64,000 nt of DNA from an uncultured Ignavibacteria bacterium (GCA_964570765.1 CAZMZF010000001.1:47626-111625), one strand, 5' to 3'. Positions 1-64,000 are shown, numbered from the stretch's first letter. Numbers and translations: made by a program. The notes: generated from the sequence alone by a model not told the origin.

Positions 1-54
1 AAGATAGATAAATAAAATTAAATGACGAATATCGGATATCGAATGATGAATATA

Positions 55-83
55 ACGTCCGGGTTTACCCCGGACGTTTTTTC
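55..83 (+). terminator. Hairpin ACGTCCGGG-TTTA-CCCGGACGT followed by a T6 run; rho-independent terminator-like
   Basis: Perfect 9-bp stem and T-tract read directly from the sequence. It would terminate a gene lying upstream of the window. Confidence 0.4.
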
Positions 84-333
84 TTGTAGGGACAGGACAT
101 TGTCCTGTCCTTTGAATTTTTTTATTCAGGATGAAAGTTTTTGAGATAGAAAATGTAAATTCAGTTACAAATGACAGATAACGGATAAAATATTTATCTT
201 TTAGAAAAGAACCTCACCCTTAATCCCTCTCCTTGAAAAGGAGAGGGAAGTGTAGCGTCCGGTCTCAAGATGCATTGCAGTTTATCCCAGACGTCCTTTT
301 TCTATGTAGCGCGAGGCCATCTCCGCCTCAGTA

Positions 334-515
334 TAGTTTTTCAGTATTTTGGTAACATTTTTTATAGGTTAAGGATATAGGAAAGAGATTATAAATTAGA
401 AGGTAACTTGTTAAAACGGGATTCACATCCAAAAATTTGTTAGTAATTAACGAGATATTGCGTAGGGGTGGAGATTGTTGAGCTTTGCGAAACCCAGATT
501 TTAGGGTCTCCACCC
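334..515. repeat. Copy A of a ~183-bp noncoding element that is duplicated at 52457-52639
   Basis: About 88% identical to the second copy. Ends in the hairpin GTAGGGGTGGAGA...TCTCCACCC. The 61-aa ORF on the minus strand inside it is judged spurious. Confidence 0.6.
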
Positions 516-1090
516 TTAACCCTTATTATAATTTTCATTGTAACTTGAGATCACCTCCTCTATAAACGATTTGTTTTAAAACTATTTTTGCCTGGATTTT
601 CTCCTCCGGTTTTATTAGAGTCTCCATTCATAGTTATTTCTCCCTTTTTTACTCCAGCAAAAATTTGATTAATTTTAGGATTTTTAAACAAAATAAATTT
701 TACTTCAACGAAGATTTCAGGAGAAAGCTTCCTGGTTTAACTCTTTAATATAAGGTTCCAACCTAGTTAGCACCCAATAATTACAATAATAATTAAACTA
801 ATAAAATTTATTTTGTCGTCTTTTTTTAGATTTTTTGGGATTTTAATAGTGCGGGAAGATTATTCTAGCATTAAGTTTTATCACAAAAACGCATGATTGA
901 AAAGCCAACATTGCTAATTCATTCTAAACACTTGCACCATTTTAATCTTTAAGCCAATATAGTCACTCTCCTGAGCTAACTTATAAACTTTTCCTTGACT
1001 TGAAGCTTAAAAGTATTAAATTTTGCGGTGAACTAAAAGGTTAAAGAGTTTAATCCGCCAGAGGCGGAAAGGGTTCAAGGGAAAAAACTT

Positions 1091-1933
1091 ATGCTTAAAC
1101 TTGATGATAAAGAAGTCTATTCTATAGTGGATAATTCCTTTAAGATCGATGGAGGGGCGATGTTTGGAGTGGTTCCTAAAATTATCTGGGAAAGGATGAT
1201 GGTTCCGGATGAGTCAAACAGGATAACTTTAGACTTAAACCTTCTCCTGGTTAAAGCAGAAGGTAAAAACATCCTGGTCGATAGCGGAATTGGTGATACT
1301 CTGAATGAAAAACAGAAGAAGATATATGGTGTGGAAAAAGAGTCTAATCTTGAAAAAGGTCTTTTCGAGATTGGGTTAAAACCTGAGGATATTGATCTGG
1401 TTATTCTTTCTCATCTTCATTTAGACCACGCAGGAGGGATTGTTAAATTTAATTCTCAAGGTGAGAAGGTTCCCCGTTTTCCAAAAGCGAAACATGTGAT
1501 TCAAACCGAAGAATGGAAATATGCGCTTCAACCGGATGAAAGGACTAAAGCAACTTATATGGTGGAGAATTTTCAGGTTCTGGATGAATACGGGTTGATA
1601 GAGTTAGTGAAAGGAGATAGGGAGATTGTGCCGGGGATAAGGGTGAAATTGACTGGAGGACATACAAAAGGACAGCAGGTGGTTTTTATCCAGGGAGGGG
1701 ATAAAACGATTCTTTATCCTGGAGATATAATTCCTACTATTTCTCATCTTAGAATTCCTTATGTGGCAGGTGTTGATATCTATCCCTTAGAGGTTATGGA
1801 GGTCAAAAAGAAATTGATCCAGGACTGTCTGGAATATAACTGGATGATTGCTTTTGATCACGAGATCGAGACAAAGCTCTGTCGTTTAGAAAAAATAAAT
1901 GATAAGATAGAAATTAAAAAAGTTCCAATTTAG
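1091..1933 (+). CDS. MBL-fold metallo-hydrolase (metallo-beta-lactamase superfamily)
   Basis: HLHLDHAGG metal-binding motif and overall MBL-fold pattern. The gene is preceded by a GGTTCAAGG repeat and an A-rich run. Confidence 0.75.
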
Positions 1934-1947
1934 AAAAAAGGTGTTTT

Positions 1948-3498: not shown

Positions 3499-3583
3499 AA
3501 AGGTTCAAGGGTTCAATGGTTCAAAAGCTCAAGGGAAAATAATGACAAATTATAGATGACAGATATAAAATAAAAGAATCATA

Positions 3584-3742
3584 GGCGGAGCACCTTGCTC
3601 CGCAAAAACGTAGATCGTAGAGTCCGACCTTTGTGTCGGACAATGAAAGGTTTATCGTAGCGCCCGTAGGGCAATGCGACCCTGTCCTACGGTGGCTACG
3701 CCAGACGTAGTCTCCGTTATTAGGAAAAGGGTCGCGCTACGA
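3584..3742. repeat. Cluster of REP-like palindromes (GGCGGAGC hairpin, GTCCGAC hairpin, GTAGCGC...GCGCTAC family)
   Basis: Nested palindromes. The last 65 bp (3678-3742) recur at 7725-7789 with one mismatch. Confidence 0.6.
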
Positions 3743-3753: not shown

Positions 3754-5280
3754 ATGTTCAAAAAAATTCTTATAGCTAATCGGGGAGAGATCGCAGTCAG
3801 GATTATACGAGCTTGCAGAGAGTTAGGGATAAAAGCGGTCGCGGTCTTTTCTGAAATAGACCGAAAAGGTTTACATGTTCGGATGGCAGATGAAGCTTAT
3901 TTTATCGGACCCTCACCTTCAGTTGCCAGTTACCTTAATATGGAAAAGTTAATTGAGGTGACAAAAAAAGCAGGGTGCGAGGGGATTCATCCGGGTTATG
4001 GCTTTTTAGCAGAAAATCCAGTGTTCGCCCGATTAGTTGAAAAAGAGGGATTGGTTTTCATCGGTCCGCCTGCCTCTGCCATTGAGCTTTTAGGGGATAA
4101 AATGGCGGCCAGAAAAACGATGAAAAAAGCCGGGATCGAAGTTGTTCCCGGAACTGAGGAACCTTTAGAGTCTGAAAAGCAGGGGCTTTCTATTGCTCAA
4201 AAAATAGGTTTCCCAATTTTAATTAAAGCGGCTGGTGGTGGAGGGGGAAAAGGGATGAGGATTGTCAGAAATGAAAAAGATTTAAAAGAGGCCATGAGGG
4301 CTTGTTCCTCTGAAGCTAAATCTGCCTTTGCGGATGCCAGGATCTATATTGAAAAATATTTAGAGAAACCCAGACATATTGAGATTCAGATCTTAGGTGA
4401 TAAATTCGGAAATATTATTTATTTAGGGGAGAGGGAGTGCTCTATTCAGAGAAGACATCAGAAGGTGATTGAGGAATCTCCTTCACCGATTGTAGATGAG
4501 GTTATGCGAAAGAAAATGGGTGAGACGGCGGTTAAAGCAGCTAAAGCGGCTGGATATCGCAATGCAGGAACAATGGAATTTTTGGTTGATTCTGATAAAA
4601 ACTTCTATTTCTTAGAGGCTAATACTCGACTTCAGGTAGAACATCCGGTTACGGAGATGGTTACCGGGATCGATATAGCCAAGGAGCAGATGAAGATTGC
4701 CTCAGGTTTGCCTTTAAGCTACAAGCAGGCGGATGTTACCTGGAAGGGAGCATCTATAGAATGTCGGATTTATGCTGAGGACCCGGAAAACAATTTTCTG
4801 CCTTCAACCGGTACGGTTTCATATTATGAAGAGCCAGCAGGTCCAGGGATCAGGGTTGATTCCGGTCTTTATGAAGGATGTGATGTCCCGATCTACTATG
4901 ATCCAATCATAGGAAAATTAATCACCTGGGGTAAAGATAGAGAGGAAGCTATTCAGAGAATGAGAAGAGCTTTAGCGGAATATCATATTTCCGGTGTAGC
5001 TACCACCATACCTTTTCACATTCAGGTGATGGAGAATGAAAAATTCAAGCAAGGAGAATTGTCTACTCATTTTATTGAAGAGGAGTTTAATCAAGGCAGA
5101 AAAGCTCAACTTGAAGAAAATAGTTATAGAATGGTGGCTTTGTTTTCGGCTTTAGCTGAATATAAAAATATACAAAAGGTTCAAAGGTTCAATCCGCCAG
5201 GGCGGACAAAGACTCAAGAGAAGGAAAATCCGTGGAAGATGGAAGGGAGAAGAAGAGGATTAAGAAAATTTGGGATTTAA
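3754..5280 (+). CDS. Biotin carboxylase subunit (ATP-grasp), partner of the upstream carboxyltransferase
   Basis: N-terminus MFKKILIANRGEIAVRIIRAC, glycine-rich ATP-grasp loop GGGGGKGMR and the downstream biotin-carboxylase domain pattern. The 3' end runs through a GGTTCAAAGG/CCGCC repeat, which may extend the C-terminus. Confidence 0.9.
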   Translation: MFKKILIANRGEIAVRIIRACRELGIKAVAVFSEIDRKGLHVRMADEAYFIGPSPSVASYLNMEKLIEVTKKAGCEGIHPGYGFLAENPVFARLVEKEGLVFIGPPASAIELLGDKMAARKTMKKAGIEVVPGTEEPLESEKQGLSIAQKIGFPILIKAAGGGGGKGMRIVRNEKDLKEAMRACSSEAKSAFADARIYIEKYLEKPRHIEIQILGDKFGNIIYLGERECSIQRRHQKVIEESPSPIVDEVMRKKMGETAVKAAKAAGYRNAGTMEFLVDSDKNFYFLEANTRLQVEHPVTEMVTGIDIAKEQMKIASGLPLSYKQADVTWKGASIECRIYAEDPENNFLPSTGTVSYYEEPAGPGIRVDSGLYEGCDVPIYYDPIIGKLITWGKDREEAIQRMRRALAEYHISGVATTIPFHIQVMENEKFKQGELSTHFIEEEFNQGRKAQLEENSYRMVALFSALAEYKNIQKVQRFNPPGRTKTQEKENPWKMEGRRRGLRKFGI

Positions 5281-5813: not shown

Positions 5814-6048
5814 GAAAAAACGTTTTTCGTGACCGTTGTTCGTGAGCGTTGAAAAAATGTAGAGAGGTTCAATAGTTCAAAGGTTTAATAGTTCAAGGGC
5901 AAAAAAGATATAGAATTCATTGCGGGGAAACCAGGCCGGAATGACGAAATTCGTAGGACGTTCGCCCGACACGATGGTCGGGCGTTAAGAGTTTCAGCTA
6001 CTTGCTACATGCTACCTGCTAAGAGCTATTAATAGATGAGAGAGGTAA

Positions 6049-7678: not shown

Positions 7679-7789
7679 TGTAGCGCGAGGCCTCAAGGTC
7701 TTGAGACTTTCAGCCTCGCAATGTGACCCTGTCCTGCGGTGGCTACGCCAGACGTAGTCTCCGTTATTAGGAAAAGGGTCGCGCTACGA
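7679..7789. repeat. REP-like palindrome cluster (GTAGCGCGAGGC...GCCTCGC, then GACCCTGTCC...GGGTCGCGCTAC)
   Basis: Palindromes read from the sequence. The terminal 65 bp repeat 3678-3742. Confidence 0.6.
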
Positions 7790-8201: not shown

Positions 8202-8326
8202 CACAGCTGATTGGAATGATTAAGCAAATTAAAAAATACGGATGACAGAGTTTTTCGTAGCGCCCGTAGGGCAATGCGACCCTAAAAGGTCGCGCTACGA
8301 AACTGCAACTTGATTAAGAGAATTAA

Positions 8327-9339: not shown

Positions 9340-9390
9340 GTAGCGCGAGGCTTTTAGCCTCGCAATGCGACCCTGAAAGGGTCGCGCTAC
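9340..9390. repeat. REP element: GTAGCGCGAGGC-TTTTA-GCCTCGC-AATG-CGACCC-TGAAA-GGGTCGCGCTAC
   Basis: Double-hairpin palindrome with GTAG/CTAC termini, located 22 bp upstream of the RAYT gene. Confidence 0.75.
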
Positions 9391-9412: not shown

Positions 9413-9892
9413 ATGAAATATAGTTTTCAAAAGAGGATAAGATTAAAGGACTTTTCTTATAAAGGTTTGTGGAGATACTTCGTAACAATTTCGACGTACG
9501 AAGGTAAACGATATTTCGAAAATAATAAGTCTGTAGAGAGTTGTATTATTTATCTTAAAGATATATCGGTTTCATATAACTTCAACGTATTAGCGTATTG
9601 TTTTATGCCTGATCATTTGCATCTTTTGATTGAAGGAAAAGAGGAAGATTCTGATTTTAGGAAGTTTATGTCTATGTTTAAACAGAAGTCAAATTATCAT
9701 TGTAAAAACATCGAAGGAAATCCTCTTTGGCAAAAGGATTATTATGAACATGTTTTAAGAAGAAATGAGGATACTATACAGGTAATAAAGTATATATTAG
9801 ATAATCCGGTAAGAAAAGGGATGGTTAAGGATTTTAGAGATTATCCCTTTCTCGGTTCTTTTGTTTATGATTTAAAAGAGGTATTTTCGTAG
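9413..9892 (+). CDS. REP-associated tyrosine transposase (RAYT, IS200-like HUH Y1)
   Basis: HuH motif MPDHLHLLI and downstream catalytic Tyr region LWQKDYYEHVLR...NPVRKGMV. Same-family REPs flank the gene on both sides. Confidence 0.85.
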   Translation: MKYSFQKRIRLKDFSYKGLWRYFVTISTYEGKRYFENNKSVESCIIYLKDISVSYNFNVLAYCFMPDHLHLLIEGKEEDSDFRKFMSMFKQKSNYHCKNIEGNPLWQKDYYEHVLRRNEDTIQVIKYILDNPVRKGMVKDFRDYPFLGSFVYDLKEVFS

Positions 9893-9938
9893 CGCGAGGC
9901 TTCAGCCTCGCAATGCGATCCTAAAAGGATCGTCCTAC
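9889..9938. repeat. REP element of the same family. Its GTAG supplies the RAYT TAG stop codon
   Basis: GTAGCGCGAGGCTTCAGCCTCGCAATGCGATCCTAAAAGGATCGTCCTAC. Confidence 0.75.
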
Positions 9939-11052: not shown

Positions 11053-11158
11053 AAAACAGTTCAAAGGTTTAAAGGTTTAAAAGTTTAAAGGTAAAAAAGA
11101 AAATTAAACTGTTTACAATAAGAGTTCTTATCAAGGAAACAAAAGGATAGAAAAAAGT

Positions 11159-12250: not shown

Positions 12251-12377
12251 AAAACGTTCAAAAGCTTAAAAGTTCAAATGTTCAAAGGTAAAATATAAGT
12301 GATGTTGGAGTGCTTAGGTTGGTTCGGGAATTGTCGTTAAGATTTTCTAGGGTGAGAATTCCTGAACCAGAAACGTA

Positions 12378-12410: not shown

Positions 12411-12551
12411 TGTAGCGGATCCGCCTTTGGCGGATAGGTTTCCATCTTCCTTTAACAAGAGAATGGAAGGCTGAAGTCTCAAGACTTTGACGGCCTTCCG
12501 CTACACAAATCGGACTTGTCTGCTCATTACACTCATACAAGAATGTCTGAG

Positions 12552-13352
12552 CTACTTCAGAGGTTTTGCGTCTTCAGGAATCTTGAGCTGAAATTTCTTT
12601 TCCGAGATAGATGAATTTATCTGAATTTCCAAAAATTTAAGCCTGAGCTTCTCTTTTCCCTCTAATGATTTTATCTCTATTGTCTGAGGGAGTTTTATCC
12701 CATTGAATTTCCTAAAATCTTTATATTCTATCATAAATCCCTGGGCTTTTTCTTGTTCTACTTCAAATGAATTCAATCTCTCCCAGATGCTTTTTCTTAA
12801 AAGTGCCTCTTTTTTATCCAGACAGAATTTTCTTTTCCACATTTGAATGCTATCTTCATAGATGTAGTTTTTCTGGTCAGCTCCGGTATAATAAGCCCTA
12901 TCTTCCTTTATCTGGATTTCAACTGCAAGAATTTTTAAAAGACAGAAAAGGCTGATCTCATTCTCGTAAATAGAATCATAAGAGCAGTTTTGAGTGATAC
13001 CTTTATAATATTTTTTTAGACGGGGGAAATAAAAAAGTAAGGTATCGCTATAGACTACTCCAGATATGTAATCGGGACCTAAAAAAGCTTTTACTCTGAA
13101 GGCAAGACTATCTGGCTTTTTTAAAAATAGTTCTAAGTCTCCGGAGAAACTTCCCTGTTTAGATTTGTAGTTGAAGTTTATAAGCGAAGAAGAGGTTTTG
13201 GTCTGGCTTTGATTTGAGATCGCTTTTTCCAGGACTTTTTGCGGAGTAAGCTCCTCTGGAGGAGGTTTCAGGCGAGCCGCTGGATAACAGCTGAAAAAAA
13301 AGAGAATTAAATAAAAAAGTAAAAGAAGGCTTATCAACTTCATAAATGTCAT
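12552..13352 (-). CDS. Hypothetical secreted protein or lipoprotein
   Basis: The longer ORF in the track (to 13568) extends across a REP. The start is placed at MTFMKLISLLLLF (signal peptide, possible lipobox FSC). Confidence 0.45.
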   Translation of the reverse strand: MTFMKLISLLLLFYLILFFFSCYPAARLKPPPEELTPQKVLEKAISNQSQTKTSSSLINFNYKSKQGSFSGDLELFLKKPDSLAFRVKAFLGPDYISGVVYSDTLLFYFPRLKKYYKGITQNCSYDSIYENEISLFCLLKILAVEIQIKEDRAYYTGADQKNYIYEDSIQMWKRKFCLDKKEALLRKSIWERLNSFEVEQEKAQGFMIEYKDFRKFNGIKLPQTIEIKSLEGKEKLRLKFLEIQINSSISEKKFQLKIPEDAKPLK

Positions 13353-13476
13353 TCTGAAGGAGTCCCCTACGGGACGACTGAAAAATCTTCTTGAGACGGT
13401 TGCAGATTCTTCCCCCGCCAAAGGCGGGGTCAGAATGACAGTAAGGGGTGTTGAAATCTTAAAACCTGAATCTTTT

Positions 13477-19366: not shown

Positions 19367-19867
19367 AGATTTCCCTTGTCAAAAAAGTTCGGTATAATAT
19401 ATTGATTAAGAAGATATTTATCAACAGAAAAGATGAAAAGAAATATCAGATTTTATATTAAACGATAGAATTTAAAATACATAAAAGGGCGACCCGCCGG
19501 GTCGTCCCTACGATCTGTAAACGATGAAAGAACGTTGTAAGGAGAGAGGATAGGGGAGAGGTTTTATTTTGTCGATAAAGGAATTAAGACCAGTAGGGCG
19601 GAAACCTTCAGGTTTCCATATTATTTGAAAATGGAAAGTTGAAATCTCAAGACTTTGTCCGAAATTGGATCCATAGGAACGGTCTTCCGCTACAAAAAAC
19701 AAGAAGAGGGCAGGGGAGAGGTTTTAAAAAATTCTTGCCAAAAATAATTTATATGCTATACTTACAAGTGGAGAAGTAAGTTAGACACCAGAGAGTTTCC
19801 GTCAAGTCAGTCCGCCTGAGGTGGATGACGGGCATATTGAAAAATAAAAAATTGGAAGGAGGTTTTT

Positions 19868-22771: not shown

Positions 22772-22929
22772 AGTTTAATTAATTTAAAGTTTGTAAATTA
22801 GTAGTGCGACCCTTTTAGGGTCGCCTTAGCGAGGCTAAAAGCCTCGCACTACGAAAGCTTCCTGGTAAACCTGAAGGTTTACACTCCATAATTACGTTCA
22901 CGAAAAACGAATAACGTTCACGTTTTTTC

Positions 22930-23703: not shown

Positions 23704-23917
23704 TTCTCCTCCTTTGATTGTTGAATTGTTTTTCGTAGTGCGACCCTTCAGGGTCGCTTAAGCAAGACTAAAGCCTCGCACTTCTTTTTGAAGTCTACAG
23801 GCTAAAATCCGTAGGGACAACCCTTATGATTGTCCGAAATCGGTAGAACAGACATTCCTGTCTGTTCATCGTAGTCAGACAAGAATGTCTGACTTACCAA
23901 TACCAAGAGCCTATTGC

Positions 23918-28981: not shown

Positions 28982-29505
28982 CGAGTAAACCTCCTGTTCT
29001 TGTGATTTATATCAAAAAAAGCAAAAATTCTTCTGTTTTATATATAATCTTTTTTAAATCAAGATTCAAGGATTTTCTTTCATACTTTGAGATTTTTTTC
29101 ACAAGGTATTTTATAGGGACCACCCTTGTTGAACTTTGTGAAATCCCCGCCAAAGGCGGGGGTGGTTGTCCGTATTTCGTAGTGCGACCCTTTTAGGGTC
29201 GCCTGGGAACTATCTATTGCGGAGACGCATGCAATGCGTCTCTACGTTTCTTTTAGCTTCTGCGGAGCAAGTCCGCCTCTGGCGGAAGCTTACGATTCTA
29301 CATTTGTCATTTCCTACGGATCCGTTTCTCGGACTGAGCAAGTCCGCCTTTGGCGAGACGATCGAAGAATCTCTTAAACTTGACAAGAGAATAGATTCTT
29401 CGTCCGCCTTTGGCGAGACTCAGAATGACAGTTCATTGTGTCCCTTGAGCCTTTGAACCCCTCAACCACATAAGCGAGGCTAAAGCCTCGCACTACGAAA
29501 AAAAT
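28982..29505. repeat. 524-bp intergenic region made almost entirely of REP palindromes inside a long minus-strand catabolic gene string
   Basis: Palindrome families CCGCCAAAGGCGG, GTAGTGCGACCC...GGGTCGC, GAGACGCATGCAATGCGTCTC, TCCGCCTCTGGCGGA, ...CTCAGAATGAC and GCGAGGCTAAAGCCTCGCACTAC. Confidence 0.6.
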
Positions 29506-34900: not shown

Positions 34901-35239
34901 TTTGTATTTCCTTGTTTATCGTAGTGCGACTCTTTCAGGGTCGTGTAGCAGAGGTTTTAGATCTCTGCCGAGCCCTGAAGGCTCGGCTACGCGTCTATTT
35001 TCATGGTTGGGCTACCCAACACATTATACGGCCTGTCCCGAAGGACGACCAAGGTGTAAACGGGCCTGCACGACCATTTTTTCAACATAAGTTTTTTGTG
35101 CGGTAGAATAGACATTCTTGTCTGTTCTTTTATTTGTCAGACAGGAACGTCTGACGTTACGTCTTGTCATTCTGAGGGAGCGTAGCGACCGAAGAATCTG
35201 AAGACTCTTCGCTTTCGCTCAGAGTGACAGTAAAAATAA

Positions 35240-37841: not shown

Positions 37842-38279
37842 AGATTACCCTCGCTTTCTTTTTATTTTCAAAAGGAAAAGTATTATACTAAATAGATATG
37901 GAAAAAGTCAAGATTTTTTGACAGAATATTTTTTTAAAGTTTTAGGGATCCAGTTTTGGAGAAAGCACAGGTGACTTTCTAGGTAGAGACGCATTGCCAT
38001 GCGTCTCTACTTCTTTCGTAAAACTCATCTTGACATGGAAGACGGTTTCTCTCCTACAGGAAAGGGGATAGTTGAAAGCTGTAGGGGTGAAGTTACCTCG
38101 TCCCTACAAAAAATATTTAATTTTAATGTTCTTTGTCCGAGTTTGTCATCAAGACCCAAAATCGGGGATCCATAGGATTGGTATCCTCACCAAGAAGAAA
38201 AAATCGTTGGTCGGGAGACCAACGATTAGCAAAGGGCGTATGGCAATACGCCCCTACGATCTATTCGATATCTGATATT

Positions 38280-38678: not shown

Positions 38679-38808
38679 TATTTAATTTCTTAGTTTACAT
38701 ATCTACTTTAAGGACAGAACAGTGTTCTGTCCCTACAATCCCCACCTTGTGGGCAAGGTGGGTCTACCAGTTTTTTTGGACAGAATCCACTTGAGATGGG
38801 TCCTGTCC

Positions 38809-45815: not shown

Positions 45816-46101
45816 ATTCTCTTTTGGTGGAACAGATATCCTGTCACTTCTTATTATCAGACAGGAATGTCTGACCTACCACTTTTTTGGACCCACCTTG
45901 GGGGCAAGGTGGGTCTACCGATTTAAGGATAGAATTCACCGAAGGTGGATTCTGTCCCTCCAACCAGTTTCGTCGGGCGTGAAGCCCGACGCTACGAGCA
46001 TTCACTCTTTCACCATCGGATCAGTCCGCTTGAGGTGGACGACGGACACATAACTCCATATTTTTGCTACAAGCTCCTTGCTACGTGCTACCTGCTTAAA
46101 T

Positions 46102-50400: not shown

Positions 50401-50630
50401 GATTTATGTAGGGGCACGGCGCACCGTGCCCCTACGGATGTCATTGCGACCCCGCCACAGGAGGGGGAAGCAATCTGCTGACTATGTGAAGGTTGCTTCG
50501 TCGTCCCCGAAGGGGGCTCCCCGCAATGACAGGTAAAAGAAAAATATTTTGAAATTTTTCTTGCTTTTTGAAAAGTTATCTATATGTTAGTTAATGGTAG
50601 TATAAAAAACCTAAAACTAAGGAGTGGAAG

Positions 50631-52639: not shown

Positions 52640-52868
52640 TTTACCTTGGGCGGAGTTAAACTCCCTACGGGGAGCTAAACCTGTTAACAAAATTGTGAAG
52701 TAGTGCAACGGGCAGGAGTACAACTCCTGCCCGAGCAGATTACCTCATCAGATATTCACAGAATTGATAAAATAGCCGATAAAAATAATAATACTGAATA
52801 GTATGTTACTGCGGATAATTTATTGTAGAGTAATGTGTTAGCAAATGCTTTTCTTTTAAAAAAAACGA

Positions 52869-55025: not shown

Positions 55026-55225
55026 AGAACGTTTAATCCGCCAAAGGCGGACAAAAGTTCAAAGGCTCAAAGGAAGAAAAAATAATAATGGATGAAGAAT
55101 GACGAATGACGGAAAAAATATTGTAGGGGCAACCCCCTGCGGTTGCCCATTATGGGAGCAGGCGCTGGAGCCTGCCCCTACATAAAATATAAAATGTCAA
55201 CACTTATGAATTCAGAGGTCAATAG

Positions 55226-56284
55226 ATGTTAGGTTTGAATGAGATTATCGAAAAAGAAGTTACTAAGGCGATTTCTTTCATCCAGGAAGCTTTGAAGGAA
55301 AAACCTGAGTATATCGAAATTGAGCGGGGTGAGGAGGAGAAAGAGCTATTACTTTTAGATAAAAATTTAGACCAACTTTCCTTTGATAAAATCCCGGAGC
55401 TTAGCTGTGAAAACAAAGTCGCGGCAGTGGATGGTGGGTCTGCTACAGTCCTTAAAACCAGGTCTTTTCTGATCGGAGTTTATCGGGCAGGATATGTAAT
55501 TTTTCAGAAAGGGAAAAGAGTTAAGGAGAAGTTTGTTCCTCTGAGGATGGAGATTCTATCTCTGGAAAACAAAGCAGAGAAATATCTGCAAGCGTATCAA
55601 GAACTGGTAGGTGAGGTGCCGAATGAGGTCCCGGAGTTAGATAAGATTTTAGACCGGTTAAGGCTTTTTGCGGAATGGGGGCTGGTCAAGGGATTAATAA
55701 CTGATTTAGAAAAGAGTGATATGATTTTAGTAGATGGCTCATTAAGGGCAAGCATTGTGCCTCCGTATGAGCTTCTTTTAAAAGTAACAGAAGAAGCCAA
55801 ACAGAAAAATATCCATTTAGTTGGAGTGACCAAGACCTCTACTCTATACTGGGGTAAAAAATCTCCTTTGATTCCGATGGTGGTTAAAAGCTCAGAGAAG
55901 TTCTGTCCAGAATCTAAGTGGTTCTGCCGTTTGTCTGATCTGGATTTAGCTTTGAAAAATTCCAACTGGTTCGGGACGATCTATGTATCCAGGCTTAAAG
56001 CCTCTTCTGATTATGCTTTTAGAGTGGATATAAATCGTCTGGATAATACTGAGCCAGCAAAGATTTTCTCCTGGCTGTCCAATCTTTCCTCTGACCCAGC
56101 ATACTTAGGTTATCCCTATCCTTTAGCTGCAGTGCATAATCGGGCCAGGATTTTAGGAAGTGAGATCGAAGATATAAAATATAGATTGCAGAGCAAGGCT
56201 TTAGAAAAAGGGATTTCATTTGCGGACTGGAACCTTTTGTTCCGGGATTTTCATGAGGTGTTGAATGCGGATTTAAATAAATAA
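55226..56284 (+). CDS. NurA-like nuclease domain protein (tentative)
   Basis: KVAAVDGGSATV matches the NurA N-terminal catalytic Asp motif (..DGS). Size about 350 aa. A HerA-like ATPase gene lies 1 kb downstream. Confidence 0.5.
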   Translation: MLGLNEIIEKEVTKAISFIQEALKEKPEYIEIERGEEEKELLLLDKNLDQLSFDKIPELSCENKVAAVDGGSATVLKTRSFLIGVYRAGYVIFQKGKRVKEKFVPLRMEILSLENKAEKYLQAYQELVGEVPNEVPELDKILDRLRLFAEWGLVKGLITDLEKSDMILVDGSLRASIVPPYELLLKVTEEAKQKNIHLVGVTKTSTLYWGKKSPLIPMVVKSSEKFCPESKWFCRLSDLDLALKNSNWFGTIYVSRLKASSDYAFRVDINRLDNTEPAKIFSWLSNLSSDPAYLGYPYPLAAVHNRARILGSEIEDIKYRLQSKALEKGISFADWNLLFRDFHEVLNADLNK

Positions 56285-56382
56285 AATAAATGACTAATGA
56301 TTAATGATAGATAACGGATAAAAAAAATGGAAAATGAAAGAAAGAAGAAGAGAAATAAAAAGATAATGACGAATAAATAACT

Positions 56383-56443
56383 GTAGGAGCAGGCCCCTGT
56401 GCCGGCCCTGATATTCTGGGCGAACACACAGGTTAGCCCCTAC
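56383..56443. repeat. REP element GTAGGAGCAGGCCCCTG...GCCCCTAC (GTAGGGGC family)
   Basis: Palindrome with GTAG/CTAC termini 18 bp upstream of the RAYT2 start. Confidence 0.6.
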
Positions 56444-56460
56444 AAATACCAGAATAAAAA

Positions 56461-57048
56461 ATGCAACAGAATTCGGAAAAATATCAACGTCGTTCAATCC
56501 GATTAAAGGAATACGATTATTCACAAGCTGGGGCGTATTTTGTAATGATATGCACGCAGAACAATGAATGCGTTTTTGGAGAGGTGATTAATGAAGAGAT
56601 GAGATTGAATAAATATGGGAAAATTGTTAAAGATGAGTGGTTGAGGACAAGGGAGATACGTTCAAATGTGATGTTGGATGAATATATCGTGATGCCAAAT
56701 CATTTTCATGGTATTATACTGATTATTGATGATGTGTTTGTAGGGGCGACCCGCCGGGTCGCCCCTACAGTAAAATCAACCACGTTGAAGTCAAATACCC
56801 TCGGTTCAATTATTGGTCAAATAAAATCCATTGTTACCAAAAATATTCACAAAATGGGATTAAAACATTTTCACTGGCAAAGAAATTATTATGAACATGT
56901 TATTAGGAATGAAGATAAGTTGAACAAAATCAGACAATATATTCAGAACAAACCTCTAAGCTGGCATCTGGATAGAGAAAATCCGGAAAGGGTAGGAATA
57001 AATAGGTTAGAAGATGAGATTTTTAATTTGAAGAAGACAATTAAATAA
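56461..57048 (+). CDS. REP-associated tyrosine transposase (RAYT / IS200-like Y1), second copy with a REP palindrome embedded in the coding sequence
   Basis: HuH motif MPNHFHGIIL. Catalytic Tyr region WQRNYYEHVIRNE...YIQNKP. The palindrome GTAGGGGCGACCCGCCGGGTCGCCCCTAC at 56740-56768 lies in-frame between the two motifs. Confidence 0.75.
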   Translation: MQQNSEKYQRRSIRLKEYDYSQAGAYFVMICTQNNECVFGEVINEEMRLNKYGKIVKDEWLRTREIRSNVMLDEYIVMPNHFHGIILIIDDVFVGATRRVAPTVKSTTLKSNTLGSIIGQIKSIVTKNIHKMGLKHFHWQRNYYEHVIRNEDKLNKIRQYIQNKPLSWHLDRENPERVGINRLEDEIFNLKKTIK

Positions 57049-57328
57049 ATAGCGGATGACGAATATCGAACGACGAATAATGGATAAAAGAAGAAGGGAT
57101 ATAGAAGAAGGAATATGAAAATGAAGAAAAATGGTAGATATTGAAGATTGATTAAAAGATTGTAAGGTCAATCTCCCGTGCCTGTCCCGGAAAGGTGCTA
57201 TCATTGCGAGGAGTCTCCCCGCCTTTGGCGGGGGACGACGAAGCAAGCACCTTACTCAATCAGTGTAAACAGATTGCTTCGCACCGCAGGGGACTCGCAA
57301 TGACACTATTATAACCTGAGGAGAAAAA

Positions 57329-58894
57329 ATGGATTACAAAGGCAGAATAATCGGAAAAAGTATAACCGAGATTTATTTCCGGACTTTTTATGAGGAGGAA
57401 CTTCATTTAGGGGATATCCTGGTGGCACAGGACGAGGAGAAAAATCTTCCTTTTTATTTAAGAGTAGTGGAGGTCAGTTACGGAGTTGAAGCAACTGATC
57501 CGGACTGGGCTTCTCGCACTGCGGGGAATATGATGCTTTTAGACCGGCAGACCGAGTCTTATCAGTTTCAGGAAAAAGAGAGAAGGCTTTTCAAAATTGG
57601 AAAATGTGTCCCCTTAGGTTATATTAAAGATAATCTCTTCAGAAAACCAAAAACTATACCGGAACATTTCTCCAGAGTGCGCACTCCAAATAATGAAGAT
57701 TTTCTTTTTCTGAAAAAATATACGGGTGATATAGACGTTGGTAAACTGCGCTCAGGTGAAGATGTGATTGATTTCAAAATCGGAGTCTCCGGAGAGCTGT
57801 TTCCTTATCATATCGGGATATTCGCTACCACCGGTATGGGGAAAAGTAATTTGATGAAGGTTTTAGCCAGTTCAGTTTTAGAATCGGGCAAATACGGGAT
57901 GCTGATTTTGGACCCGCACGGAGAATATTATGATGGGGGAGGTGATCCGAAACATAAGGGGTTGGTTGATCATCCTTTAGCAAAAGAATGGCTGAGAGTC
58001 TATTCTTCCAGAGATTTAAAAGGTCCTTATAATAAACTCAAGATAAGCTCCAAGGAGATAGAGATCAAGGATGTTCGGCAGATTTACGGGTTCACCCAGG
58101 CACAGGTGGAAGCGCTTTATGCCTTAGCGCATCATTTTGGCAGGGATTGGCTGGATGGAGTAAAGAGAAGTTCTATTTCAGAGCTGGCGATGAGTTTGTC
58201 ATCTGGCGGTGCTTTTTTTGAATCAACGATAGGAGTCATCCAGAGGAGAGCAGAGCAGATTTTGAGACTTCCCTTTGTGCATGGTGACCCTAATGTCTCT
58301 ATTACTGTTAATGTGATTAATGATTTATCCTCAGGTAAAGTGGTTTTGATAGATACTTCCAATATGTCTGAACAGGAGGAGCTTTTGATCTCTGCGGTTC
58401 TGGCACGGGCTGTTTTCTCCAGAAATAAAGAGGCATATCAGGATCCTGCCAAGTTCAAAAAGATCTTACCTACTCTGATCGTGATGGAAGAAGCCCAGAG
58501 AGTTTTATCTCAAAAGGGCGAAGCGGATATAAATATCTTTGCTCAAGTCTCAAGAGAAGGAAGGAAGTTCAAAACCGGGCTTTGTGCCATTACCCAACAG
58601 CCAAAACTAATCGATGAGGAGCTTTTGTCTCAGTTCAATACCCTTTTCATCTTAGGTCTGGCAGATGAACGGGACCGGAATATCCTGAAAAGCTCTGCCA
58701 AGCAGGATATTTCTGATCTGGGAACAGAGATTCAGATGCTTGAAGCAGGCGAAGCTTTGATCACCTCTCCCCAGGCTCCTTTTGCCATCCCGGTTAAGGT
58801 CTATCTTTTTGAAGAATGGCTGAAGGAAAGAAAAGAAAGCTTGAAAGAAAAAAATTCTGTGGATGTAAAGGTGGATGAGGGATTTTTTAAATAG
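57329..58894 (+). CDS. HerA-like ATPase (FtsK/HerA superfamily, DUF87)
   Basis: Walker A GIFATTGMGKSNL, Walker B LIVMEEAQR. About 520 aa. Confidence 0.7.
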   Translation: MDYKGRIIGKSITEIYFRTFYEEELHLGDILVAQDEEKNLPFYLRVVEVSYGVEATDPDWASRTAGNMMLLDRQTESYQFQEKERRLFKIGKCVPLGYIKDNLFRKPKTIPEHFSRVRTPNNEDFLFLKKYTGDIDVGKLRSGEDVIDFKIGVSGELFPYHIGIFATTGMGKSNLMKVLASSVLESGKYGMLILDPHGEYYDGGGDPKHKGLVDHPLAKEWLRVYSSRDLKGPYNKLKISSKEIEIKDVRQIYGFTQAQVEALYALAHHFGRDWLDGVKRSSISELAMSLSSGGAFFESTIGVIQRRAEQILRLPFVHGDPNVSITVNVINDLSSGKVVLIDTSNMSEQEELLISAVLARAVFSRNKEAYQDPAKFKKILPTLIVMEEAQRVLSQKGEADINIFAQVSREGRKFKTGLCAITQQPKLIDEELLSQFNTLFILGLADERDRNILKSSAKQDISDLGTEIQMLEAGEALITSPQAPFAIPVKVYLFEEWLKERKESLKEKNSVDVKVDEGFFK

Positions 58895-58946
58895 AGTATT
58901 TTGTATGGACAGAACACTGTTCTGTCCTACTTTTTTATCTAACTAC

Positions 58947-60312: not shown

Positions 60313-61042
60313 ATGAGCAAGGGAATTTTTTACATTGGAGTTGATGTGGGGCAAGAGGAGTTATGGGTAGCAATAGAAGGACACAAGCCACATTCTTTTA
60401 CCCATACTGTGGCTGGCGCTAAGGAGTTGTGGAATTGGATTCGGAAGAGAGTAATCCTGAGGCAACTTTGCATTTCTGTATGGAAGCTACCGGAGTCTAT
60501 AGTCAGAGATTAGCAGCCATTCTTTCCAACTATGAGGATACAGAGATTAGCATTATCAATCCAGCCCAAATCGCCTCCTTTTCTAAAGCCCAACTCAAGC
60601 GTAGTAAAACTGATCGAATAGACTGTCAGGTCATTGTATCAAAACCCAGATCCAGCTTCTCTGCAGTGTTCAGTGCATAGGAGAAGGCACTGCTACTCAC
60701 TTGCTAGCCTATGGCAAAACAGCGCTGACCAATTATTCAGTCAGAGCTTTAGTGGCTCATGTCGGGATAGCGCCCAGACACCGACAATCCGGAATCTCAG
60801 TTTGGGGCAAAAGCCACCTGGCTAAAGAAGGAGATAAACGCTTACGCTGTATCCTTTATATGCCTACTCTTGTCGGAATTGTACCTAACCCTATCCACAA
60901 GAAATTCTACCAAAGACTATTGGCTAAGGGTAAACCCAAAAAGGTAGCTTTAATCGCTTGTATGAAAAAGTTACTGCTTATCGTTAGAGCTATCCTGATC
61001 AAACAAGTTCCATTTAACCCGGCTATCCAAGGCGTAATATGA
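60313..61042 (+). pseudogene. IS110-family transposase remnant (frameshifted and internally deleted)
   Basis: N-terminal DEDD-type segment IFYIGVDVGQEELWVA. C-terminal segment VAHVGIAPRHRQSG...ALIACMKKLL is typical of the IS110/IS116/IS902 C-domain. The remnant is split over three frames and only about 240 of an expected ~350 aa remain. Confidence 0.7.
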
Positions 61043-61182
61043 AAAAATCATCTTGACATGGAAGACGGTATCTCTCCTGAAAGGAGAGGGGAGGGTGGGG
61101 TCTATCTATGGAGACCTTGCCTACGAGTTGTGGAGACGCATGCCATGCGTCTCTACGAAAAAATCTACATAAATTTGTAGTT

Positions 61183-61204
61183 GCCCAATTTATTGGGCTT
61201 TTTT
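61183..61204 (+). terminator. Hairpin GCCCAAT-TTA-TTGGGC followed by T6
   Basis: Perfect short stem plus T-tract read directly from the sequence. Confidence 0.45.
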
Positions 61205-61372
61205 GCTTGATAAATCAAGCAACTATAGATAAAGGGGACTGTAGCGTCGGGTTTTACGCCCGATGTATTTTTTTCAATTATGGAGTACATCCATTTGGAT
61301 GCTTTCTATAATCCAAATTTCTGACTTGACACTGTTTTTTCCGTATATAAGTTAGGATTTAAAAGGAATGAT

Positions 61373-63373
61373 ATGGCTAAGTTTGGACTGGTTTCAAATT
61401 ACAAACCCACTGGTGATCAGCCTCAGGCGATTGAGAAATTAACTGAAGGTGTCCGGAGATGTGAAAAATATCAGACCCTTTTGGGTGTAACCGGCTCAGG
61501 GAAGACTTTTACGGTTGCTAATCTCATCGCCAATGTGGGTAAGCCAAGTATAGTGATTTCCCATAATAAAACCTTAGCGGCTCAGCTTTACGGTGAGCTA
61601 AAGGGTTTTTTCCCGCATAACGCGGTGGAGTTTTTCATAAGTTATTATGACTATTATCAGCCAGAGGCTTATGTCCCGCAGACTGATACTTATATAGAGA
61701 AAGATACCTCGATGAATGATGATATCGATAGACTGCGCCTGCGGGCTACCTCATCTTTATTAGAAAGAGAAGATGTGGTTATCGTTGCCAGTGTCTCCTG
61801 CATATATGGGTTAGGTTCTCCTAAGGATTACAAGGAGCTACTCTTGTTCTTAGAGGTAGGAGAAGAGTTCGAAAGGGACCAGATTTTAAAATCTCTGATC
61901 GATATCCATTATTCCAGAAACGATATCGAATTTGCCCGGGGAACTTTCCGGGTAAGAGGGGATACGATTGAGGTTCATCCAGCTTATGAGGAGACCGCAA
62001 TCAGATTAGAGCTGTTCGGCGATAAACTCGAGAGGATTTCGGTTATCGATACCTTAAAAGGTGATCTCTTGGAGGAGAAGAAAAGGGTTGCGATTTATCC
62101 GGCTAAACATTTTGTTACCACACCACCTCAATTAGAACAGGCGATCAAAAATATCGAAATAGAATTAGAGGAGAGGTTGAACTGGTTCAGGGACCAGGGA
62201 AAGCTCCTGGAGGCACAGAGACTGGAATCACGCACGAAATTTGATTTAGAGATGATGAGGGAGATCGGTTATTGTCCTGGAATTGAAAACTATTCACGTC
62301 ATCTTTCCGGCAGGAAACCAGGAGAAAAGCCTTATTGTCTTTTAGATTTTTTTCCAAAGGATTTTTTGATAATCATAGATGAATCTCATCAAACAATCCC
62401 TCAGATAAGAGGGATGTATGCCGGGGACAGGTCCAGGAAAGAGGTCTTAGTTGAATATGGGTTCAGGCTCCCTTCAGCCTTAGATAATCGTCCACTGTTT
62501 TTCAAGGAGTTCGAATCTATGATTAATCAGGTTGTCTTCGTCTCAGCCACTCCTGCAGAATTTGAGTTAGAAAGAAGCAAAGGGGTAGTAGTTGAACAGA
62601 TCATCCGGCCTACTGGACTGATAGACCCTCTAATTATAGTTAAACCTTTAAAAAATCAGGTGGATGATCTTTTAGAGGAGATAAAATTAAGGTCAGAGAA
62701 AAAGGAAAGGGTTTTAGTTACTACCTTAACCAAAAGGATGGCTGAAGATTTAGCAGATTATCTTGCACAGATGGGCATAAAAGTTAGGTACCTTCATTCG
62801 GAAATAGATGCGATTGAGAGGGTGGATATCTTAAGGGATTTAAGGTTAGCAGAGTTCGATGTCCTGGTGGGGATTAATCTATTAAGAGAAGGTCTTGACC
62901 TGCCAGAGGTTTCCCTGGTAGCCATCTTAGATGCAGATAAAGAGGGTTTTCTCCGTTCGGAAACTTCACTCATTCAGATTGCAGGCAGGGCTGCCAGGAA
63001 TAAAGCGGGTGAGGTGATTATGTATGCGGGTGAAGTAACAGACTCTATGAGAAAGGCGATTGAGGAGACGAATCGGAGGAGAAAGATTCAAGAAGAGTAT
63101 AATAAATCTCACGGGATTACACCTCAAACCATTTATAAAACCAGAGAGGAGATTTTGAAAACCACAACCTTTGCAGATTCCAGGACCGAATCTGTGGTCA
63201 AAGAAGAGAGGATGGATTATCTGGACCTTTTAACCTTAGAAGATAAGATCGAACATTTAGAAAGGGCAATGAAAAAGGCATCTCAAAACTTAGAGTTCGA
63301 AAAAGCAGCTATTTATCGAGATGAGTTGAAGAAATTAAAGGAAGGCCAGAAAAAAAGGTTCAGAAGAAATTGA
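61373..63373 (+). CDS. uvrB: Excinuclease ABC subunit B
   Basis: 666 aa. Walker A GVTGSGKT, helicase motifs, beta-hairpin region and C-terminal UVR domain ([12 protein letters not shown]). Confidence 0.95.
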
Positions 63374-63573
63374 AGATCTAAGATGGGGGGTATATTGCAA
63401 TATGCACATTTTTTGTTTGTCATTGTGGGGAGTCCCGCAATATGCGGGACGACGAAACAATCCGTTTTATAAGGGTATATGGATTGCTTTGTCTCGCCTG
63501 CGACGGACTCGTAATAACAGCCCTGGGGATAGGGGGTTCGATTTATCGAACCCTGATTTGTCTCAGAAATAAG

Positions 63574-63601
63574 TTGACAAAAAGATGTTTTTTTATATAA
63601 T
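63574..63601 (+). promoter_or_regulatory. Sigma-70 consensus promoter: TTGACA, 16-bp spacer, TATAAT
   Basis: Perfect hexamers 63574-63579 and 63596-63601, about 65 nt upstream of the atpC start. Confidence 0.45.
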
Positions 63602-63665
63602 CGTAAATTAAATGCGTTTTTAAAGAATCGAACAGCAAACAGCTAATAGCGAATACCGAAACAAA

Positions 63666-64000
63666 ATGTTTCTGTTGACCATCGTAACCCCGGAAAAAAT
63701 ATTCTATGAAGAAGAAGTTTCTTCTCTGGTTGCACCAGGGGTTGAAGGATATTTAGGGGTTTTAACGGACCATGCTCCTTTGATTACTTCCTTAGTTCCA
63801 GGAAAATTAACTGTAAAAGATTTAAAAAATACAGAGGTTGTGCTGGCAATAAGTGGAGGGTTTTTAGAAGTCCTGAAGAATAAGGTAGTGATTTTAGCTG
63901 ATGCGGTGGAATTTGCCAGAGATATAGATTTGGAAAGGGCAAAAAAAGCCTTAGAAAGAGCAAAACAAAGACTCAAGTCGAAGGAAAAAGAGATCGATAT
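63666..64000 (+). CDS. atpC: F-type ATP synthase epsilon subunit, 3' end truncated by the window edge
   Basis: MFLLTIVTPEKIFYEEEV...GYLGVLTDHAPLIT...GGFLEV is a conserved epsilon-subunit pattern. The minus-strand ORF 63704-63976 is its antisense shadow. Confidence 0.8.
   Translation, partial: MFLLTIVTPEKIFYEEEVSSLVAPGVEGYLGVLTDHAPLITSLVPGKLTVKDLKNTEVVLAISGGFLEVLKNKVVILADAVEFARDIDLERAKKALERAKQRLKSKEKEID

Follow-up and report, generated by a model that had tools for sequence, protein, structure and literature searches.

The stretch of DNA considered here is a window of 64,000 nucleotides (nt) from an uncultured Ignavibacteria bacterium (GCA_964570765.1, CAZMZF010000001.1:47626-111625; 'the window' below, with positions counted from its first letter), in which the gaps between genes hold many short palindromes of the repetitive extragenic palindromic (REP) kind. 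It encodes two REP-associated tyrosine transposases (RAYTs), RAYT1 (9413-9892) and RAYT2 (56461-57048), both of which had been recognised in an initial annotation of the same sequence. The GC content is ~40%, and the genes are ordinary metabolic ones: acyl-CoA carboxylase subunits, methylmalonyl-CoA mutase, acyl-CoA dehydrogenases, thiolase, phosphate butyryltransferase/butyrate-kinase-like pairs and amino-acid dehydrogenases. The encoded proteins find their nearest relatives in metagenome-assembled genomes (MAGs) of candidate division Zixibacteria, and the host is described here as Zixibacteria-like. Given 56 accepted open reading frames (ORFs), the intergenic share comes to 11,655 bases (18%), divided among 51 gaps. 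Scans of the whole window revealed neither tRNA genes nor, at gathering score, any Rfam family, and with permissive Rfam settings the 651-nt gap at 52278 yielded a chance-level match only. The genomic scope of everything that follows is this one 64-kb window together with fragments of relatives.

Perfect hairpins (stem of at least 8, loop of at most 10) number 59 in the window, 46 of them wholly intergenic and 13 coding. In 100 dinucleotide-preserving shuffles of the same gaps the intergenic expectation was 3.3±2.0 (maximum 11), which bears out the claim that the palindromes are over-represented, while the coding count shows no excess over the 12.2±2.6 expected. A hairpin is counted as tagged if GTAG lies no more than 7 nt 5' of the stem foot or CTAC no more than 7 nt 3' of it; such a tag accompanies 29 of the 46 intergenic GC-rich perfect hairpins (stem of at least 7) and none of the 10 coding ones, against a chance rate that we estimate at roughly 6%. 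The per-kb frequency of GTAG and CTAC in gaps is about double that in genes. Raw k-mer counts are dominated by A/T-rich words and become informative only once limited to GC-rich words. The family words stand at 9-70 times expectation: the head word GTAGYGCGASSC (at most one mismatch) was observed 15 times against 0.22 expected, GTAGGGGC 8 times against 0.89 and GTCATTSYGA 9 times against 0.44. The repeats fold at z -3.5 to -7. A CRISPR array was ruled out, the repeats being irregularly spaced and spread over many different gaps.

Some 36 tagged units occur in the window (0.56 per kb), all but one of them intergenic, and single tagged hairpins show no bias in their direction relative to genes (15 vs 14). 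The palindromes had been described as running from GTAG to CTAC; this is true of about 11 intergenic structures, mostly doublets, whose outer stem of at least 7 bp joins the two tags, but most units are tagged on one side (15 on the GTAG side, 19 on the CTAC side, 2 on both), which is the expected look of single REPs. There are at least eight distinct GTAG-tagged stem types, which bears out the earlier claim of at least six. Of the types distinguished here, F1, F2, F3, F6, F7, GGAAGGC and GCCCAAT carry the tag, and the GTCATT and CCGCC types do not, so that three of the eight families first listed as GTAG REPs (two GTCATT...AATGAC types and CCGCCNNAGGCGG) must be taken out of that group; conversely, the GGACAGAACA palindrome, listed without a tag, has GTAG at 86 and CTAC at 38733 and 58927. 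Palindromic repeats do lie at all 26 of the example positions given in the initial annotation, about seven of them of non-GTAG kinds. The assertion that REPs fill almost every gap is too strong, as a tagged hairpin occurs in 23 of the 40 gaps of at least 50 nt, which is a majority only; a GC-rich hairpin of any kind is present in 32 and a repeat shared with another part of the window in 30. Nor are the long gaps essentially pure REP arrays: hairpins and self-repeats make up 3,287 of the 11,655 intergenic bases (28%), and the repeat cluster in the 524-nt gap at 28982 takes up about two-thirds of it. In Escherichia coli the density of REPs is roughly 0.1-0.15 per kb. The density of tagged units seen here would be high, provided that this single 64-kb window is representative. 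Published figures are '>100 copies per genome' for REPs and, for each REP class in Stenotrophomonas, 37-427 perfect copies (PMC2817692).

RAYT1 (9413..9892, plus strand) encodes a HuH-Y1 transposase of 159 aa with the motifs DHLH, WQ and YILDNP. It matches Pfam PF01797 (Y1_Tnp) at E 3e-9 and scores 112.9 bits with the NCBIfam model for REP-associated tyrosine transposases, NF047646, above the cut-off of 80, while the IS200 model NF033573 gives it 24.9 bits, below the cut-off of 55. The WQ..EH region of RAYT/TnpAREP proteins contacts GTAG. RAYT1 aligns with E. coli TnpAREP (PDB 4ER8) at E 4e-11 across the HuH motif (DHLH), WQKDYYEH and YILDNP. A RAYT gene embedded in its own REPs is termed a REPtron, and this arrangement is present at RAYT1, with F1 doublets on both sides (9340-9390 and 9889-9938). 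The perfect doublet upstream ends 22 nt 5' of the start codon, and the TAG stop codon of RAYT1 is the TAG of the downstream REP's GTAG. The family commonest around RAYT1 is the one that flanks it on both sides, its doublet being the most frequent in the window, and RAYT1 is assigned to the GTAG[C/T]GCGA(GGC/CCC) family, which it would serve as the putative cognate enzyme. RAYT1 and RAYT2 are each present in one copy in the window. Quentin 2018 (PMC6006769) gives TnpAREP subclass 2.5 the features DH[LF]H, WQ, YI[VI]ANP, ~151 aa and short REPs; RAYT1 has DHLH, WQ, 159 aa and short REPs, with YILDNP in place of YI[VI]ANP, a comparison made on motifs only. The Logan contig L081 begins 50 nt upstream of RAYT1.

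The F1 unit consists of GTAG[C/T]-GCGAGGC-loop-GCCTCGC (hairpin A), a linker of 3-4 nt, and GCGACCC-loop-GGGTCGC-[G/A]CTAC (hairpin B). Hairpin B is an inverted REP whose stem departs from that of A at two positions, a pairing of A and B that parallels the Y/Z pairing in the bacterial interspersed mosaic elements (BIMEs) of E. coli. As single-stranded DNA (ssDNA) the unit is predicted to fold into a Y-shaped three-way junction of about -20 kcal/mol (z -5.7 to -6.8). Nine or ten doublets stand against one or two lone heads, in a sample that is small and regionally clustered; two F2 doublets are also present in the window. F1 copies with the GTAGCGC head lie on the plus strand between 306 and 9938, those with the GTAGTGC head on the minus strand between 22801 and 34990. 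The fifth base of the head agrees between the two halves in all nine doublets (five have C and G at this position, four T and A), as would be expected if each doublet were copied whole. RAYT1 has six F1 heads or doublets within 9.2 kb, and every one belongs to its own GTAGCGC subtype; Nunvar 2010 (PMC2817692) reports similar local production of REPs near rayt and notes such a concentration in Thauera.

The doublet upstream of RAYT1 (9340..9390, plus strand) reads GTAGC-GCGAGGC hairpin A, AAT, GCGACCC hairpin B and GCTAC, with a fold of -20.6 kcal/mol (z -6.8); the one downstream (9889..9938, plus) has the variant B stem GCGATCC, a variant also found 3' of the RAYT1 orthologue in locus L001. 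At 7680..7787 (plus) both loops contain extra hairpins, the insert measuring 15 nt for loop A and 41 nt for loop B, and the whole folds at -28.7 kcal/mol. In the F1-variant doublet at 3657..3740 (plus) the A hairpin is swapped for CCGTAGGG and the B loop has the same 41-nt insert, which is missing from a further F1-variant doublet at 8257..8298 (plus). A truncated head (GTAGCGCGAGGC..., 306..329, plus) abuts the 195-nt repeat described below. The GTAGTGC subfamily comprises a doublet at 22801..22852 (minus strand; -19.5 kcal/mol), with hairpin A first on the minus strand, which is also the strand of the neighbouring genes; a degenerate doublet at 23735..23784 (minus); a B hairpin at 34921..34990 (minus) with further hairpins after it, ending in CTAC; and a split doublet at 29179..29496 (minus), whose hairpins are ~270 nt apart with an F3 REP, CCGCC hairpins and a GTCATT element between them, and which is either the product of nested insertion or a doublet that carries cargo.

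Read in the direction of the flanking genes, all nine F1 doublets (again regionally clustered) start with hairpin A, a pattern contradicted by an F1 doublet in the related locus L082, whose polarity is opposite to that of the genes beside it. An orientation linked to replication was rejected, doublet polarity flipping with gene strand at ~12 kb. The fixed polarity relative to transcription may reflect strand-specific targeting of ssDNA exposed by transcription, or a role at the RNA level.

The association between RAYT1-type genes and tagged hairpins extends well beyond this window. One genome per species was scanned for relatives of RAYT1; 402 stretches encode them, the best 80 were taken, and 77 of these loci had enough flanking sequence for hairpin counts. 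These best 80 of 402 come from Zixibacteria, Ignavibacteria, the anammox Planctomycetes (Kuenenia, Scalindua, Brocadiaceae), Dehalococcoidia, Thermodesulfobacteriota, WOR-3, Margulisbacteria, Acidobacteria and others. A tagged hairpin was found in 127 of 154 (82%) of the 200-nt windows flanking the genes, compared with 24 of 1,139 (2%) of those more than 500 nt away, and the GTAG and CTAC termini recur in related genomes; as far as the window and these fragments reach, this speaks against the refuting condition set in the initial annotation, a lack of such termini outside the window. Among the 77 loci, a GTAG-hairpin precedes the gene within 200 nt in 60, and a hairpin-CTAC follows it within 200 nt in 47; the 40 that have both show the order GTAG-hairpin, gene, hairpin-CTAC, which resembles that of an insertion sequence (IS). 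Forty-one upstream hairpins share one geometry; in these, GTAG and the loop C-TTYA-G vary hardly or not at all, and five stem positions each occur as three or four pair types. The REP families of the window were found across independent assemblies from NCBI, ENA, JGI and Logan.

A related Zixibacteria MAG, GCA_029858245.1, contains both genes in the same setting. Its RAYT2 (loci L082 and L083) is 74% identical and lies between NurA and DUF87 in the same run of neighbours; its RAYT1 is 78% identical, stands ahead of the same dehydrogenase and shares the GCGATCC variant hairpin downstream. The REPs differ: the gap after a ~820-aa gene holds a GTAGGGGC REP and a GTCATT element here and unrelated hairpins in the related MAG, and the NurA-RAYT2 gap measures 176 nt and has a doublet here, against 42 nt and no doublet in that genome. 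Syntenic RAYTs combined with differing REPs in orthologous gaps suggest that the genes are stable and the REP population fluid, and the comparison indicates an apparent turnover of REPs between such gaps, as reported for systems of RAYTs and REP doublets forming hairpins (REPINs). Between RAYT2 and DUF87 the related MAG has two additional ORFs (207 and 164-178 aa), at a place where the window has a 280-nt gap with a GTCATTGCGA element.

RAYT2 (56461..57048, plus strand), a RAYT-like HuH-Y1 gene of 195 aa, has the motifs NHFH, WQRNYYEH and YIQNKP, the last with K for the usual N, and lies between a NurA-domain gene and a DUF87 (HerA-like) gene (55226-58894). It shows homology to RAYT1 and the relatives of RAYT1 from end to end (tblastn, down to E 1e-13) and has 7,965 homologues at E<=1e-10, some of which are named 'REP element-mobilizing transposase RayT' by their sources. 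No Pfam family recognises it at E 1e-3, and with NF047646 it reaches 47.3 bits, below the cut-off of 80, in two stretches; both the broken domain match and the Pfam miss are ascribed to a REP-encoded insert that splits the domain. This insert is the perfect double-foot REP GTAGGGGCGACCCGCCGGGTCGCCCCTAC (56740..56768, plus), which lies in frame between the HuH and tyrosine motifs and encodes VGATRRVAPT. The same peptide, or palindrome-encoded variants of it (GTLQRAPT, tandem copies), occupies this site in most of 26 aligned homologues, and the palindrome is kept in the orthologues of L082 and L084; such conservation suggests that the 'insertion' is old or recurrent at one site. A degenerate F2-type doublet, GTAGGAGC...GCCCCTAC (56383..56443, plus; weak fold, z -1.1), lies 18 nt 5' of the gene, and RAYT2 is thus a REPtron only in part, with a degenerate F2 doublet on its 5' side and an F2 REP inside it. 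Residue 164 (56950-56952) is the K of YIQNKP, where at least 90% of aligned homologues have N (YIxNNP) in the Y---NP motif. The account of TnpAREP subclass 2.4 in Quentin 2018 (PMC6006769) lists NH[IFV]H, a median of 194 aa and double-foot REPs, and in that account REPs inserted in frame between HuH and Y are a feature unique to the subclass. With NHFH, 195 aa, double-foot REPs and the in-frame GTAGGGGCGACCCGCCGGGTCGCCCCTAC, RAYT2 is, judged by sequence features, subclass-2.4-like, and the REPs linked to it are those of the double-foot family GTAGGGGC...GCCCCTAC.

Further members of that F2 family are a doublet at 55123..55181 (plus; GTAGGGGCAACC..GGTTGCCC-ATTAT-GGGAGCAGGC..GCCTGCCCCTAC), the double-foot REP GTAGGGGCACGGCGCACCGTGCCCCTAC at 50408..50435 (strand not applicable), GGGCGACCCGCCGGGTCGTCCCTAC at 19487..19511 (minus), whose core is shared with the palindrome inside RAYT2, and GGGCGTATGGCAATACGCCCCTAC at 38234..38257 (minus). 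F3 is represented by GTAGAGACGCATTGCCATGCGTCTCTAC at 37983..38010 (strand not applicable), with more copies at 29221-29245 and 61132-61156 and another beside the RAYT1 orthologue in L001. A 36-nt repeat, AAAA(C/A)TCATCTTGACATGGAAGACGGT(T/A)TCTCTCCT, with a TTGACA hexamer, is found at 38020-38055 and 61043-61078, each copy within ~55 nt of an F3 REP. F6 (GGACAGAACAGTGTTCTGTCC-CTAC) is found at 38712..38736 (minus), 86-110 (GTAG side) and 58907-58930, and F7 (GACCCACCTTGGGGGCAAGGTGGGTC-TAC) at 45890..45918 (minus), 38741-38767 and, degenerate and ending in TTAC, 47671-47699. Two more doublets are GTAGCGGATCCGCC...GGAAGGC[loop insert]GCCTTCCGCTAC at 12412..12504 (plus), with related GGAAACC and GGAAGGC hairpins at 19593-19617 and 20290-20311, and the AT-loop doublet GTAGTTGCCCAATTTATTGGGC...TTGCTTGATAAATCAAGCAACTA at 61177..61225 (plus), a family also present in L082.

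Palindromes nested in hairpin loops recur among these elements: the 41-nt insert sits in the B loop at 3680 and 7727, another insert lies in the GGAAGGC loop at 12474, and CTCAAGGTCTTGAGA, nested in the A loop at 7692, has an identical counterpart inside a GCAATGC hairpin of L084. Comparable associations of REPs with other palindromes have been described (Di Nocera 2013, PMC3733652). Stems of the window's families are also seen beside RAYT1 relatives elsewhere, with GGACAG...CTGTCC hairpins in L029, L037 and L051 and GGAAGGC and GGAAACC hairpins in L049, L061, L073 and L080. Such recurrence suggests that there are further RAYT paralogues outside the window, on which the families GAGACGCATG, GGACAGAACA, GACCCACCTTG, GGAAGGC/GGAAACC and GCCCAAT probably depend.

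Taken together, these observations lead us to regard the window as holding a multi-family REP/REPIN population with two REPtrons, mixed with other repeat classes, a reading to which we give a probability of about 0.85. The proposed linkage of the palindromes to RAYTs is therefore supported for the GTAG-tagged hairpins, and the three untagged families have no link to either RAYT. The unit is a GC-rich hairpin of 7-12 bp with GTAG at its 5' foot, and two inverted units (GTAG-hairpin A ... hairpin B-CTAC) make a doublet corresponding to a BIME or REPIN. By analogy with work on E. coli TnpAREP, the cognate HuH-Y1 enzyme would bind the hairpin and GTAG on ssDNA, then cut and rejoin the strand, so that the doublet would be copied or moved to other intergenic sites, and the RAYT gene itself would stay single-copy and vertically inherited. 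The catalytic steps of RAYT1 and RAYT2, including specific binding and cleavage of ssDNA REPs, are likewise those that the E. coli enzyme would predict.

Several points weigh against this reading. Mobility and activity are argued by analogy, and genome coverage is 64 kb only. At least five GTAG families have no RAYT in the window. RAYT2 falls under the NCBIfam cut-off, its upstream doublet is degenerate, its downstream neighbour is a GTCATT element with no GTAG REP, and the change of N to K in its catalytic motif may mean that activity is impaired, reduced or lost. Finally, a count by which 99% of stem positions in the hairpins beside RAYT1 relatives are paired is circular, the hairpins having been chosen for pairing, and the independent evidence there consists only of the stem diversity and of the contrast between flanks and background.

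A 92-nt palindrome at 13348..13439 (strand not applicable), GTCATTCTGA...TCAGAATGAC, has two side hairpins and no GTAG tag; other copies of this GTCATT element lie at 29306-29429, 33211-33267, 35166-35228 and 44882-44974, GTCATTGCGA-type copies at 50440-50530 and 57200-57304, and a degenerate copy at 63419-63518. Each half of the ~90-nt GTCATTCTGA/GTCATTGCGA...AATGAC rod comprises a fixed 10-nt head, a GC-rich side hairpin and an inner arm, GAAGAATCT. These palindromes, with their nested CCGCC hairpins, could be REPs of the same RAYT system in which the head is a diverged GTAG, and they do share its architecture, with two inverted half-units, each a fixed head followed by a GC-rich hairpin, folding into long rods; moreover, one copy lies 150 nt 3' of RAYT2 and another inside the split F1 doublet. 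We consider this unlikely. Neither the GTCATTCTGA and GTCATTGCGA elements nor the CCGCCNNAGGCGG hairpins have GTAG or CTAC at the foot, only two copies of the GTCATT elements were found in 463 kb around the 80 RAYT1 relatives, and no such element adjoins the orthologue of RAYT2 in L082 or L084. At least 120 metagenome contigs contain the GTCATT half-unit; a relative of RAYT1 or RAYT2 (tblastn, E 1e-4) is encoded in none of 80 loci with it (471 kb). Given this want of linkage, the rods would be mobilised by some other enzyme, and it is conceivable, as a tentative proposal, that they form an undescribed REPIN-like superfamily, widespread in environmental bacteria and independent of RAYT1- and RAYT2-type genes. 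A search of the literature by sequence for the GTCATT heads returned unrelated primer matches only and no description, a result that proves no absence. The GTCATT...AATGAC elements, the CCGCC hairpins and the tandem arrays of 7-8-nt units described below are better treated as separate repeat classes that share the intergenic space.

Another explanation holds that the hairpins are transcript elements selected by the host, either intrinsic terminators or stabilisers of mRNA 3' ends, to which the RAYT genes are incidental. Most tagged hairpins do lie in co-directional or convergent gaps, often less than 100 nt from a stop codon, and the uniform polarity of the nine F1 doublets relative to their genes would suit such a role, as would the view that many REPs act as RNA elements (Di Nocera 2013, PMC3733652). 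Some untagged hairpins are terminator-like, with T runs after them (for example, 54-78 and 12376-12403), and the three untagged hairpins with at least 6 T in the next 9 nt are probably ordinary terminators. The same T-rich run follows only 6 of the 29 tagged hairpins, for which intrinsic termination was rejected. Terminators would not be expected to share a GTAG tag or near-identical stems, nor to occupy 82% of the flanks of RAYT relatives across unrelated phyla, and tagged REPs are also found in a divergent gap (19367-19867) and within a coding sequence; the opposite polarity of the L082 doublet argues in the same direction. It is thus very doubtful that host selection accounts for the tagged hairpins, but a secondary RNA role alongside mobility is possible and compatible with the REP/REPIN explanation.

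It is scarcely credible that the repeats derive from autonomous IS200/IS605-type insertion sequences, as their ends or remnants, or that they arose as artefacts when the metagenome was assembled: RAYTs are related to IS200 transposases, as the 24.9 bits of RAYT1 with NF033573 recall, and short-read contigs break at these repeats, as L081 does next to RAYT1, but that score is far under the cut-off of 55, the window contains no tnpB and only one copy of each RAYT, the related genome has each gene once and in synteny, and independent assemblies from four sources share the REP families, so that membership of IS200/IS605 was rejected on score, copy number and tnpB.

Other repeats were noted in the same gaps. 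Tandem arrays of an 8-nt unit (GTTCAAAG / GTTTAAAG, 3-4.6 copies) begin at most ~10 nt beyond a stop codon and run in the direction of the gene before them, at 3502-3535, 5865-5896, 11059-11092, 12252-12286, 32379-32403 (minus strand), 52279-52315 and 55055-55075; the motif also follows genes in related Zixibacteria loci (L082 7959-8000, L084 12997-13349), and a CCGCCAAAGGCGG hairpin is sometimes inserted in the arrays. Arrays with a 7-nt period (3-6 copies) adjoin gene starts or ends, with the units GCTACAT (5997-6021, 44982-45014, 46063-46096), TAGGTCA (17631-17663), CCTACCA (18442-18485), GTTAGAC (21517-21545) and ATGACGA-like sequences (55092-55111, 56289-56308, 57049-57090); ATGACGAAT-type arrays of this kind are also present in L084. 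A repeat of ~195 nt has two copies, ~93% identical, at 328-521 and 52451-52645, and terminates in the hairpin GTAGGGGTGGAG-TTGTTGAGC...GCGAAAYCC...-GGGTCTCCACCC; a variant in L084 (around 4850-4920) has the stem changed on both sides (GGGAGGGG/CCCCTCCC). It matches no Rfam family and contains no convincing ORF, and may represent a structured RNA or a further REP with a large loop. Hairpins whose stems start with AACGTC, CGTC or CGCCCGAC (e.g. AACGTCCGGG...CCCGGACGTT) lie at 54-78, 5963-5984, 12376-12403, 20320-20342, 20356-20380, 45971-45991 and 61244-61266, some with T runs after them and others with CTAC; they may be ordinary terminators or members of the REP superfamily that Di Nocera 2013 calls 'CGTC-tagged'. 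The remnant of an IS110-family transposase (~60313-61042; N-terminus MSKGIFYIGVDVG from 60313, PF02371 at 60701-61042), short and out of frame, makes up most of the 812-nt gap at 59889 and abuts REPs at 61043-61156; the targeting of REPs by some insertion sequences for transposition is mentioned in Nunvar 2010 (PMC2817692).

The repeats also disturb annotation, in that they create spurious ORFs and false start codons in MAGs. Mechanically called ORFs were extended or created by them at 12552-13568, 20232-20570, 34698-35090 and 45604-46053, and in the case of a DUF4292 lipoprotein gene the AATGAC end of such a GTCATT repeat provides an ATG ahead of what is probably the true start (MKLISLLL, around 13343). 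REPs break short-read assemblies as well, as the public contig ending 50 nt from RAYT1 illustrates.

REP-RAYT systems have been studied almost entirely in Proteobacteria. The same architecture of GTAG-tagged hairpins, inverted doublets and a syntenic, apparently single-copy RAYT within its own REPs is seen here in Zixibacteria and in many uncultured anaerobic lineages, and the invariant loop C-TTYA-G with freely varying stems offers a natural data set for what the enzyme reads in a REP. This is nevertheless a known system in a dense fresh example, with no new kind of element; it leaves the understanding of how REPs work unchanged. Genomes with several families and family-specific REPtrons, intragenic REPs and stop codons supplied by REPs are already described (PMC3733652, PMC6006769).

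Comparison with IS200/IS605 elements shows a shared HuH-Y1 enzyme acting on subterminal hairpins and, in 40 of the 77 RAYT1-relative loci, a left hairpin, gene and right hairpin in that order; unlike those elements, the gene has one copy in the window, is accompanied by no tnpB there, has Y---NP rather than Y---Q and scores below the IS200 cut-off. The REP/BIME system of E. coli with its TnpAREP (4ER8) has the same GTAG-tagged hairpin, the same inverted pair of REP types and a HuH-Y1 gene bracketed by its own REPs, single-copy there and apparently so here. Its REPs are long bulged hairpins, whereas the stems here are perfect, of 7-8 bp with a 4-5-nt loop, and at least eight tagged families occur together in an uncultured Zixibacteria-like host of ~40% GC.

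In the number of coexisting families and the predominance of head-to-head dimers the window resembles the SMAG and other multi-family GTAG repeats of Stenotrophomonas maltophilia (Di Nocera 2013; Nunvar 2010), where each GTAG family has its own REPtron and REP termini supply TAG stop codons, as at RAYT1; it differs in stem sequences and in the frequent nesting of one hairpin in the loop of another (3680, 7692, 7727, 12474, 29203). RAYT2, with NHFH, 195 aa and double-foot GTAG...CTAC REPs, is like the subclass 2.4 TnpAREP proteins (Bertels group 4), which have been described mainly in Cyanobacteria and Bacteroidetes; it is set apart from them by its Zixibacteria-like host, by YIQNKP with K for N, and by the VGATRRVAPT peptide conserved in most of 26 homologues.

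The REPIN-RAYT systems of Pseudomonas and Xanthomonads (Bertels group 3; Quentin subclass 2.5) offer the parallel for RAYT1: short inverted doublets that apparently replicate as units, a RAYT of ~150-160 aa with DH[LF]H and WQ, an apparently single-copy gene that would be vertically inherited, and cognate REPs concentrated near it. Unlike that subclass, as judged by motifs, RAYT1 has YILDNP and not YI[VI]ANP. Its relatives, moreover, are found in Zixibacteria, Ignavibacteria, anammox bacteria, Dehalococcoidia, Acidobacteria and comparable groups, where the published range is essentially Xanthomonads and Pseudomonads, and the loop C-TTYA-G is kept across all these phyla.

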